This document shows positions 26,614 to 29,762 of a stretch of DNA of 64,000 bases, piece after piece. Each line of letters starts with the position of its first letter. Within the stretch, counting starts at the first letter, position 1. The stretch lies in assembly GCA_048884965.1 (NCBI GenBank), contig JBHLQH010000011.1, positions 1 to 64,000 on the forward strand, written 5' to 3'. A program made the translations under genes and the position numbers. The notes below the pieces were generated by a model, which was not told the origin of the DNA, made no database searches, and was given only the letters and a program-made list of their open reading frames with translations. This DNA is from Candidatus Thorarchaeota archaeon (GTDB taxonomy: Archaea; Asgardarchaeota; Thorarchaeia; Thorarchaeales; Thorarchaeaceae).

Positions 26614-27684
26614 CTAAAGTCTTCTTTTCCCTAAGAGGAATTCCTCGACCCATCGTTCAGCTCTATACATCGTAGTCGGAGTCGGAGGCATCTTAAAACC
26701 ATAGGCTGATAGTGATTCCAGCGCTCCACCTATCCCTCTTCGCAATGCGAGCTTTGTGCCTCTGATCGCATCAAAGAGAATTGGTCCTGCATTGGGACCG
26801 TCTGTGACTTCCATTCTGATATCGATCTTGATAGGAGCTCCTCCGAATTGCCTTCCATGAATGTAGAAGTACGAGTCTCTCCCGTTATCCATGAAACTCA
26901 CATAATCGGATGAACCTGCGACTAGGGGTGCATGGTATGGCAGGTCTTGGCTTATTGCTGCGCTTTTCACACCTCTCTTTCGCATTCTACCTCTGTAGTG
27001 CGAATCAAGTGACTCAGCACCACCACCAACGTCAAGCTGATAGCTCTTATCAACACGCACTCCTCGTGCTACCAGTAGCTGCAAGATACTTCTATGGAGA
27101 ACAGTAGAACCTAGCTGATCCTGAATATCATCGCCTACCAAAGGCACACCTTTCTCCTCGAACTTCTTACTCCATTCGCTGTCAGAGGCGATTGGAATTG
27201 GAGTGCCATTGATGAATGCACATCCAGCATCCAATGCCGCCTGTGCATAGAATCGAGTTGCTGCCTCTGCTGATCCAGGTAATAGGTTCACTACGATTTC
27301 TGTACCAGTATCTTTCAGCACTTTGACAACATCAGCTTCGGGCTTATCTGAAACAGTGACGAGAGCCTTAAGCATATCGTCTACACCATCATGGAGGAAC
27401 CCTTTCTCAACCTTAATGCCAGTTGCTGGTACCTTTGCAAATCGCATCACATTATTCGGATTTGCAAAAATGGCATCCGCTAGGTCCATACCGACTTTGC
27501 TATCGACGACATCGAATGCAGCAACGACTTTGATGTCTCTAACGTGAAAACCTGCAAAATCCGCGTATCCCAATCCAACGAGTTTTTCGTCGTCATTCTT
27601 AACTTCCTTATAGTATTCAAGGCCTTGAACAAAAGCACTTGCAACATTACCAATGCCTACAAGGGCCACCTTTATTCCATTCAT
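26614..27684 (-). CDS. ino1: Inositol-3-phosphate synthase
   Basis: VGIGNVAS, FDV...KVG.DL..AIF, GCAFIN, VGDDIQDQLG, YQLDVGG, DGPNAG. Confidence 0.9.
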   Translation of the reverse strand: MNGIKVALVGIGNVASAFVQGLEYYKEVKNDDEKLVGLGYADFAGFHVRDIKVVAAFDVVDSKVGMDLADAIFANPNNVMRFAKVPATGIKVEKGFLHDGVDDMLKALVTVSDKPEADVVKVLKDTGTEIVVNLLPGSAEAATRFYAQAALDAGCAFINGTPIPIASDSEWSKKFEEKGVPLVGDDIQDQLGSTVLHRSILQLLVARGVRVDKSYQLDVGGGAESLDSHYRGRMRKRGVKSAAISQDLPYHAPLVAGSSDYVSFMDNGRDSYFYIHGRQFGGAPIKIDIRMEVTDGPNAGPILFDAIRGTKLALRRGIGGALESLSAYGFKMPPTPTTMYRAERWVEEFLLGKRRL

Positions 27685-27828
27685 CGTTTTCGCCTCAGTA
27701 GTGTCCCGATTACTAAAAACTGATTTCACTACTTTTAAAGTTTTATGACCATAGAATAGTTATAAATTCACTGAAACATCGTTAATGGGGATGCGTAGAC
27801 TTAATTGGGTATGATGACACTATAGTAT

Positions 27829-28051
27829 GGACGTAAGGTCAATACTGGTGCTCACAACGTATTCCTGGCTTTACAGGAAGACGTGTCTTCATACAATAGT
27901 TGAATGGAATGTTCAAAATTTGAAGATTTCAGCCTCACATGATGTTCAGAGGGAGACTGAGTATGAAAGATGAAGAGCGATTATGTTCATCAAAAATGGG
28001 GTGGACCTTGATGCCGTTCCTGGCGAAAATAGGTTGTGTTGACCTTCGTCC
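27829..28051 (+). ncRNA. Candidate structured non-coding RNA (about 223 nt) of unknown family
   Basis: 5' GGACGUAAGGUCAAUAC pairs with 3' GUGUUGACCUUCGUCC (16 bp, one bulge, one GU); several internal hairpins; TATA-like CTTAATT upstream; T-rich tail. Confidence 0.5.
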
Positions 28052-28203
28052 TCCATTTCTTTCATTGTGCTGATGGCATGAGTTAAAAGAGGGTCACATC
28101 GAGAATTATCTAGATGTATCAACACGGAATCTCCGTACAGCCAATGGGCATAGATTCCCTATTGACATTCTCAATTCAAAGAATATGCATACACGTGATA
28201 ACG

Positions 28204-28587
28204 ATGATTCTTGAAGAAGAAATGACTGATGTTACCATTGGCGAATTGAAACCTCAGATGAAGCACTTCAATTTGATATTCAAGGTTCTTGAGATAGGAG
28301 AGATACGCGAAGTCGTTTCAAGGTATGATAAATCCACTCATAATGTATCCGACGTTATTGTTGGCGATCACACCGGGACAATTATCATTCCTGTATGGGA
28401 TGAGATGATTGACCGATTCAAGGTTGGGAAGCACTACAAAGTAACGAATGGATTCACAAATCTGTATCAAAAGCATCTACGTCTTAGCATCGGAAGGTTT
28501 GGTTTCCTTCAAGAGATTGATGAGCATTTCGATACGATTCTCCTTAGCAATAACATGTCCCATGACACACACGAAATGGCAACTTAA
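28204..28587 (+). CDS. ssb: Single OB-fold single-stranded DNA-binding protein (SSB/RPA-like)
   Basis: IGELKP...KVLEIGE.REV...VGDHTG.I...VWD...I.....G.....NG......HLRLSIGRFG. Confidence 0.8.
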   Translation: MILEEEMTDVTIGELKPQMKHFNLIFKVLEIGEIREVVSRYDKSTHNVSDVIVGDHTGTIIIPVWDEMIDRFKVGKHYKVTNGFTNLYQKHLRLSIGRFGFLQEIDEHFDTILLSNNMSHDTHEMAT

Positions 28588-28595
28588 TATGATTG

Positions 28596-29762
28596 TCACT
28601 CTTTCTTTGTGCTTGCGAGTAGGTCCACGATGTCAAGTGTCATGATGTCACTATCGACAAGATCCAATCCTGACTTGAAGTTTGTTTCGCAGAAAGGACA
28701 CGCACTGACTAGGTACTTAGCTCCAGTTCTTGTTACAGCGGAGAGTCTATCAGCTGCAATCTTCTTGGACAATTCTGGGGCATAGGATCTCAGACCACCT
28801 CCCGCACCACAGCAAATCGCTGCGTCCCGATTTGGTGTCATTTCCACAAAGACTACACCAGGTATTGCCTTCAAGATTTCTCTAGGGGCTTCATAAATGT
28901 CCAGCTCTCTGCCGATATGACAAGGATCATGATATGTTACAATGACAGGTTCGCTATACCCTTTAATGTTCAATCTTCCTTCTTTTATCAACTTAGCAGC
29001 ATATTCAACGATATGTACTATCTCAGGAATCTCAATGTCAAACTTCTCTGAGAAATCGTTCTTCAGGGTCTTCATGCAGCCTGCACAGGAAACTACGATT
29101 CGCTCTGCTCCTGTACTCTCAATTATCTTAGCTACTTTTGATGCATTGGTTTCGGCATCATCATACTTACCAGTACGAAGAAGAACCGAACCACAGCATG
29201 GTTCGTTCTCCATCACAAAGAAGTTTTCTCCTGCTGCCTTGAGTATTCTTGCTGTATTCATGGCAATCTCTTGTGATCTAAGATCCGCCGTGCATCCAGC
29301 GAAGTAGAGGGTTCTTCCTGCTGAAGGCACCTCGAATTCGAGGTCTGCGGTCCATGCCCGTTTCATAGCGAGCTGCTCATTGTAAGGATTATCCATATTC
29401 TGAATCCCTTGGGCGATCCTATCCCTTGATTCGTTCGGGATGTCCTCTAGTACTGCTCTTACAGTTTCAAGAACATGAGCTGGGTGGAATTCAGCTCCAC
29501 AGATTTGAGTACAATTGCCGCATAAGGTGCACTGGTAGATAGCTTCTGCGTTCTCTGATGTCCTTTCCAGAGTGCCATCAAGTAGCGCGAGGGCGATCTG
29601 AATCTTCCCTCTCATGAAGCTTGGTTCGAAACCGCTCGTATTACGCCAAATGGGACATATACCGTCGAATCCTTTTGCCTCATACACAGCGTTCCTACAG
29701 ATCCCACACCTGCGGCATTGCAGCAGTTCCTCTCGCAAGTCTTCAAGATCAATATCTGTCAT
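28596..29762 (-). CDS. Fe-S oxidoreductase, GlcF/HdrD-like (two 4Fe-4S motifs plus two CCG domains)
   Basis: CRRCGIC, CTLCGNCTQIC, FAGC, CCG, YHDPCH, CCGAGGG, ACPFC. Confidence 0.9.
   Translation of the reverse strand: MTDIDLEDLREELLQCRRCGICRNAVYEAKGFDGICPIWRNTSGFEPSFMRGKIQIALALLDGTLERTSENAEAIYQCTLCGNCTQICGAEFHPAHVLETVRAVLEDIPNESRDRIAQGIQNMDNPYNEQLAMKRAWTADLEFEVPSAGRTLYFAGCTADLRSQEIAMNTARILKAAGENFFVMENEPCCGSVLLRTGKYDDAETNASKVAKIIESTGAERIVVSCAGCMKTLKNDFSEKFDIEIPEIVHIVEYAAKLIKEGRLNIKGYSEPVIVTYHDPCHIGRELDIYEAPREILKAIPGVVFVEMTPNRDAAICCGAGGGLRSYAPELSKKIAADRLSAVTRTGAKYLVSACPFCETNFKSGLDLVDSDIMTLDIVDLLASTKKE

Follow-up and report, generated by a model that had tools for sequence, protein, structure and literature searches.

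OLE, the raiA motif, ROOL and GOLLD are orphan classes of structured noncoding RNA that were found in bacteria by comparative genomics. To our knowledge, very few structured RNAs are known in archaea beyond rRNA, tRNA, RNase P RNA, SRP RNA and the guide sRNAs, and none is described for the Asgard archaea in the literature searched. We describe here an RNA family of the Asgard class Thorarchaeia that resembles the bacterial orphan classes in several respects: it is of middle size and built of multiple helices, with strong covariation and many invariant nucleotides, and it is lineage-restricted, free-standing and single-copy, with a function that cannot be deduced from sequence. It differs from them in that no sequence or structure similarity to the orphan classes in Rfam 15 is detected and in that it is confined to one Asgard class. 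A second point of comparison is the archaeal SRP (7S) RNA of the same genome. A TATA-like box near -30 precedes each of the two genes, the 5' and 3' ends of each RNA pair in a terminal stem, an ACCTT/pyrimidine tail follows, and the two RNAs are similar in size (223 nt for the Thorarchaeia RNA and 311 nt for the SRP RNA), although the Thorarchaeia RNA does not match RF01857 at any threshold and has another branching pattern. The Y RNAs offer a third comparison, in that the Thorarchaeia RNA also has a sequence-conserved terminal stem (GGACG...GG..GA) that could be a protein-binding platform, although it is about twice their size, its genome has no TROVE/Ro60 gene and no Rfam Y RNA model hits it.

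The element lies at 27829-28051 on the plus strand of the window, by which we mean the whole 64,000-nucleotide stretch of DNA that was analysed. It is 223 nt long, begins 5'-GGACG and ends CGUCC-3', and occupies the gap between two genes, that for myo-inositol-1-phosphate synthase (ino1) on the minus strand at 26614-27729 and one for an Ssb-like OB-fold protein on the plus strand at 28114-28587. The minimum free energy (MFE) of the plus strand is -75.2 kcal/mol, compared with -55.2 +/- 4.2 kcal/mol in 200 dinucleotide-preserving shuffles (z -4.73), none of which folds as well, and the minus strand folds worse (-60.5 kcal/mol, z -3.93). Two covariance models made from relatives, R1 from eight sequences and R2 from 30, both hit the window at exactly 27829-28051, and a structured element is present where the original prediction had placed one. 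The MFE fold also contains the 16 bp closing stem that it described, including the bulged U and the single U-G pair. The features of the locus are as follows.

27793-27807, plus strand: promoter, a purine-rich BRE-like GCGTAGA and a TATA-like box CTTAATTG; the box is conserved in homologs.
27829-28051, plus strand: the RNA gene, from the MFE z-score of -4.73, the covariance-model coordinates and the count of G-U against A-C pairs.
27829-27845, plus strand: 5' strand of the closing stem P1, pairing with 28036-28051.
27850-27853, plus strand: 5' strand of P2, GCUC, with its partner GAGC at 27975-27978.
27857-27884, plus strand: P3/P4 hairpin, ACGU-A-UUCCUG ... CAGGAA-G-ACGU with a variable loop, supported by compensatory changes.
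27885-27969, plus strand: central domain, a long stem P5/P6 bearing the hairpins P7 and P8, supported by covariation.
27905-27931, plus strand: P7 hairpin, UGGAAUGUUCA...UGAAGAUUUCA, from the alignments and the core model.
27932-27953, plus strand: P8 hairpin, with lower stem CCUC/GAGG, a 3-nt bulge UCA and upper stem AC/GU, from the core alignment.
27975-27978, plus strand: 3' strand of P2, GAGC, from the covariance-model alignments.
27985-28006, plus strand: candidate hairpin P9, GUUCAUC, an A-rich loop and GGUGGAC, from conserved sequence.
28005-28034, plus strand: variable hairpin P10, GCC/GGC with an extension ACCU/AGGU, which one species of the genus lacks.
28036-28051, plus strand: 3' strand of P1, from the MFE fold and covariation.
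28052-28065, plus strand: pyrimidine- and T-rich tail (TCCATTTCTTTCAT), a likely termination tract judged from the composition of homologs.

The fold is well supported by comparison among homologs. In a 30-sequence alignment, standard pairs occupy 90.3% of the cells of the model, as against 35-49% when the partners are slid by one to three columns, and compensatory changes occur in 43 of the 62 pairs. The covariation score of 0.495 exceeds the 0.188 seen in shuffles and is reached by none of 500 of them, although genome relatedness inflates such shuffle-based statistics while leaving the slid controls unaffected. Independent realignment of the core by MAFFT, using 36 diverse members and the core model R3, gave 96% pairing and compensatory changes in 14 of 19 pairs, and the column pairs with the highest mutual information are modelled pairs. 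RNAalifold, run de novo on 74 sequences, recovered P1 and P3 to P8, and a search for pseudoknots by mutual information yielded nothing above phylogenetic noise. The wobble pairs indicate the strand, in that the modelled pairs include 343 G-U or U-G cells and only 58 A-C or C-A cells, so that the RNA is of the plus strand only, as had been proposed, and the ino1 strand is excluded. We consider this comparative support to be about as good as an uncharacterised RNA can have.

P1 closes a junction of P2, P9 and P10, and P2 in turn encloses the P3/P4 hairpin and P5/P6. Eleven of the 15 modelled pairs of P1 have compensatory changes in the 30-sequence alignment, where the only variation in its base, GGACG/CGUCC, is a change from A-U to G-C; the divergent genus g12 has GGACA with the matching UGUCC. 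Compensatory changes are found in every modelled pair of P3/P4 (10 of 10), P5 (7 of 7) and P6 (5 of 5). P2 is nearly invariant and 96% paired, with little covariation, and RNAalifold proposes an alternative partner for it (GAGC:GUUC). P9 shows no both-sided changes in the 30-sequence alignment, and its pairing is unproven by covariation; in genus g5 its 3' strand reads AUGAAU with the pairing kept, and other members lose one or two pairs. Since P2 and P9 are without covariation and have alternative partners, this part of the secondary structure is provisional. We also noted that GGGUGGAC, in the 3' strand of P9 (27998-28006), is complementary to the 3' end GUCCACCU (28047-28054), with 8 bp in many members, which could be an alternative conformation or chance. 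The pairing is interrupted by a mismatch in genus g3 and in four species of the RNA's own genus, and we did not retain it because an RNA as large as this one is expected to contain a match of that length by chance.

Within the central domain, the GAAU/AUUC helix of P7 is nearly invariant and contains a conserved purine-purine mismatch, which is G-G except in part of one genus, where it is A-A. The lower stem of P8 covaries, its UCA bulge is invariant and its upper stem AC(C)/(G)GU varies in length, and the segment GUUCA (27944-27948) does not vary among the 36 core sequences aligned. In genus g2 (L021:1501-1722 and L022:1501-1720) a short CC-GAAGA-GG hairpin replaces the whole of P8, which may represent a swapped tertiary contact, and from these alignments P8 behaves like an exchangeable peripheral module. 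The same genus has a rebuilt P10 region followed by an A-run. Most of the helices that had been picked out from the single sequence find comparative support, namely the closing stem, ACGU-A-UUCCUG/CAGGAA-G-ACGU, UCUUCAUAC/GUAUGAA, UUCAA/UUGAA at the top of P7, CCUC/GAGG in P8, and GCC/GGC with ACCU/AGGU. Two others do not stand: UCAG/CUGA is not conserved and clashes with the covarying helix UGGAAU/AUUUCA, and GAUGAA/UUCAUC is not conserved, being specific to the genome in which it was seen.

About one third of the positions are at least 80% conserved across genera, and these are concentrated in P2, P7, P8 and the J2/9-P9 region while the flanking helices covary freely. Such a pattern is compatible with a ribozyme, or with a metabolite- or ion-binding RNA acting in trans, in which the invariant junction and bulge nucleotides would form an active site or pocket, and the replacement of a peripheral hairpin in genus g2 fits as well, an exchange of this type being known from large ribozymes and riboswitches. 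However, neither the element nor any of its homologs at 18 loci resembles a ribozyme or riboswitch of Rfam 15 at E<=10, and there is no repeat or mobile-element context, which is where self-cleaving ribozymes often sit. We regard a catalytic or ligand-binding role as unlikely, although more plausible than any of the other alternatives considered below.

The flanks of the RNA have the appearance of an independent transcription unit. The centre of the TATA-like box CTTAATTG lies about 26 nt upstream of the G with which the RNA begins. Among the homologs, 45 have sufficient flanking sequence, and every one of these has a YTTAW box that begins between -31 and -29 relative to this G, with a purine-rich stretch ahead of it. 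Beyond the 3' end, the next 12 nt average 81% pyrimidine (45 homologs). Both the CTTAATT box (27800-27806) and the T-rich tail to which the original prediction drew attention are real, and their positions are conserved in homologs. This layout is shared by the SRP RNA gene of the same genome, with a box at about -30, a terminal stem and then ACCTTTCCTCTTCTTT, and a tail of the same kind follows both the SRP and the RNase P RNA genes. Based on the position of the promoter box and the pyrimidine tail, and on the corresponding arrangement of the SRP RNA gene, the most likely transcript starts at about 27829 and reaches into the tract that follows 28051. The locus has what is expected of a conserved structured ncRNA gene in general, with compensatory changes above those of controls, a promoter of its own and a terminator-like tract. 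We also note that the interval from ino1 to the RNA promoter contains a block, TTTAAAGTTTTATGACCATAGAATAGTT (27733-27761), with 96% conservation within the genus, and that other genera have its core, ATAGAATAGTT, again on the upstream side of the promoter of the RNA; the block is probably the ino1 promoter, with a TTTAAA box, together with a regulator site.

The RNA belongs to none of the families examined. Rfam 15 (4227 models) gives no hits at gathering thresholds in the 64 kb and only unrelated noise in this region at E<=10, a permissive scan (E<=10) of 18 homologous loci shows no family recurring at the element, and the full text of the literature searched contains no description of it. 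The gene anatomy and size, which are those of the genome's own SRP RNA gene, and the conserved nucleotides of the terminal stem, which recall Y RNAs, raise the question of whether this is a very divergent version of a universal RNA already known, such as an RNase P/MRP-like, second SRP-like, tRNA-like or Y RNA. Archaeal RNase P RNA is recognised through its family covariance model, with the P4 pseudoknot regions CR-I and CR-V, and archaeal SRP RNA likewise, with an Alu domain and helices 6 and 8, and each is normally encoded by one gene per genome. The genome has its full RNase P RNA gene (RF00373) at C16:41010-41342 with 157 bits, and the window has no hit to this model at gathering or at E<=10; similarly, a full-length SRP RNA (RF01857) matches on another contig (C50:11887-12197, 84.5 bits) and the window has none. 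We note that the SRP RNA score is below the gathering score of 96.5, so that standard annotation would miss the SRP RNA in this lineage. ARAGORN finds no tRNA gene in 27000-29000 or in the whole window. Ro60, the TROVE-domain protein that partners Y RNAs in eukaryotes and some bacteria, is likewise missing, as PF05731 has no matches in the genome (95.7% complete) and does match control genomes. A divergent form of a known universal RNA is very improbable. Inspection of P7 and P8 by eye for a K-turn, C/D, H/ACA, T-loop, BHB or U6-like motif led us to drop each of these readings because the defining nucleotides or spacings are either absent or variable.

The RNA is a single-copy gene. BLAST finds one copy in the 4.09-Mb assembly and one in each of the other six genomes of the genus, at 70-81% identity. 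Of the 86 genomes of the family, R1 matches 60; the match is full-length in 59, and only one genome has a second copy, which is partial. With R2, the RNA is detected in 69 of the 87 Thorarchaeia genomes, including 22 of 24 of high quality, and in 15 of 17 genera; 67 of these 69 genomes have one match, and the other two have a second that is partial or weak. In one genome (G064, contig C292:7-116) a second, partial RNA core lies at a contig edge and scores 82 bits with the core model; a true paralog is a less likely explanation for it than strain heterogeneity or an assembly duplicate. True homologs are also present on twelve metagenome contigs, and no viral contig has a copy, the single pattern hit there failing the model match. 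In 125 other Asgard genomes R2 and R3 give noise-level scores only (E 0.01-0.05 per genome) and no credible match. The RNA is nearly universal in one Asgard class, Thorarchaeia, and what can most safely be said is that this class has a new structured RNA gene of about 225 nt that is free-standing and lineage-specific.

Two further identities had been put forward as alternatives, a MITE-like element, for which the long terminal inverted repeat speaks, and a structured mRNA for a small protein, in view of a 48-aa ORF starting at 27827 in the window. The mobile element is excluded by the single copy, the same syntenic site across sampled RNA-bearing genera and the absence of any true copy on viral contigs. 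The longest ORFs of the homologs differ in start, stop and frame, using all three frames and encoding unrelated peptides, such that GGUUCAGAG is read as VQR, GSE or FRE in different homologs, and the 48-aa ORF is excluded for that reason. Copy number, synteny and the analysis of frames already refute both readings, and the probability that we would still assign to them is negligible.

The RNA is missing from some members of the class. It is absent from all four genomes of genus g10 (L099-L101; 83-93% complete), and the single genome of the sister family f2 (L102) is also without it. In g10 ino1 and the CCG gene are direct neighbors separated by only about 100 nt, and with filters off no diverged copy is found beside ino1 in either g10 or f2. 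Its absence from g10 indicates that the RNA is not indispensable and that some lineages can dispense with it. We note separately that the RNA-less genomes (g10 and the f2 entry) have a second ino1 paralog of about 40% identity, and that the ino1 match in one g10 genome (L100; G015:C6:29019-30095) is reported with one in-frame TAG.

Where the RNA is present, its surroundings are conserved. In nearly all loci examined, among the sampled RNA-bearing genera, the order is ino1 (divergent), the RNA, in some genomes the Ssb-like OB gene on the same strand, and a convergent gene for a CCG/4Fe-4S protein. This arrangement invites a model in which the RNA acts in cis, either as a leader of the OB gene, which comes next downstream, in the same orientation, in members of at least six genera, or as a regulator of ino1, which lies divergently about 140 nt away. 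However, the next gene downstream is the convergent CCG/Fe-S gene in most genomes, where the RNA is nonetheless conserved, so that it is not a leader or a riboswitch, and the RNA ends in a terminator-like tract. The OB gene is missing from this position in the other genera, and the family has 3-11 paralogs per genome; the nearest relatives of the window's copy are not beside the RNA, and some belong to genus g10, which lacks it. As for ino1, antisense regulation is not favored, since duplex energies with its leader are no better than those with shuffled leaders (mean z -0.27, a crude test), and genus g10 retains ino1 without the RNA. Single lineages have genes for a membrane protein and for an acetyltransferase-like protein inserted between the RNA and its neighbors, and neither of these is RNA-related. 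The patchy adjacency of the OB gene, its paralogs, the unrelated insertions and the chance-level complementarity to ino1 together suggest that the synteny is that of a conserved block and not of a functional link, and the cis-acting reading, already largely refuted, is improbable. With regard to the OB family itself, this genome has nine matches, and each of the Thorarchaeia genomes searched has 1-11, in most cases 3-11, an unusually high copy number for an SSB-type protein, and the true start of the OB gene in the window is probably ATG 28201, because alignments with relatives begin near residue 25-40.

These comparisons demonstrate that the gene exists, on the plus strand, with a conserved fold and independently of the neighboring genes, and the view that this is an independent structured RNA of a class not previously known is supported by the lack of an Rfam match, the strong covariation among the Asgard homologs that were found, and the single copy in its own genome. 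Turning to function, the combination of covarying helices with invariant helix and bulge nucleotides, an exchangeable hairpin in g2 and no long conserved single strand points to a fold that acts in trans. The RNA is most likely a trans-acting one in which the fold is the working part, serving either as a protein-binding scaffold or as a catalytic or ligand-binding core, and from the pattern of conservation we rank the scaffold of a ribonucleoprotein first and a ribozyme or ligand-binding RNA second.

Our preferred model, which we hold with modest confidence, is that of a single-copy, plus-strand gene with its own TATA/BRE promoter, whose transcript adopts a compact fold of about 225 nt and acts in trans as the RNA of a ribonucleoprotein or, less likely, as a ribozyme or ligand-binding RNA. 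Transcription would begin from the TATA/BRE promoter at or next to G27829 and would end in the pyrimidine-rich tract after 28051. The RNA would then fold such that a P1 of 15-16 bp closes the P2/P9/P10 junction, with P2 holding P3/P4 and the P5/P6 stem with P7 and P8. It would act in trans through this three-dimensional fold and not through long antisense pairing, and the invariant helical sequences (the base of P1, P7 and the UCA bulge of P8) may be sites of protein binding or tertiary contact. The RNA would thus be part of a lineage-specific ribonucleoprotein, with a ribozyme or ligand-binding RNA being the less likely outcome.

More tentatively, the RNA could be the core of a new ribonucleoprotein or ribozyme that arose within Thorarchaeia and whose partner or activity is unrelated to RNase P, SRP, snoRNPs and other known RNPs, a proposal that we consider possible but doubtful. 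The covariance model can now annotate the RNA in genomes and metatranscriptomes, and the invariant helices offer concrete handles for pull-downs, probing and structural work. If the RNA does prove to be the center of a new RNP or ribozyme, it would add a new class of functional RNA to the phylum of archaea that stands closest to eukaryotes, and would widen the known RNA repertoire of their closest prokaryotic relatives.
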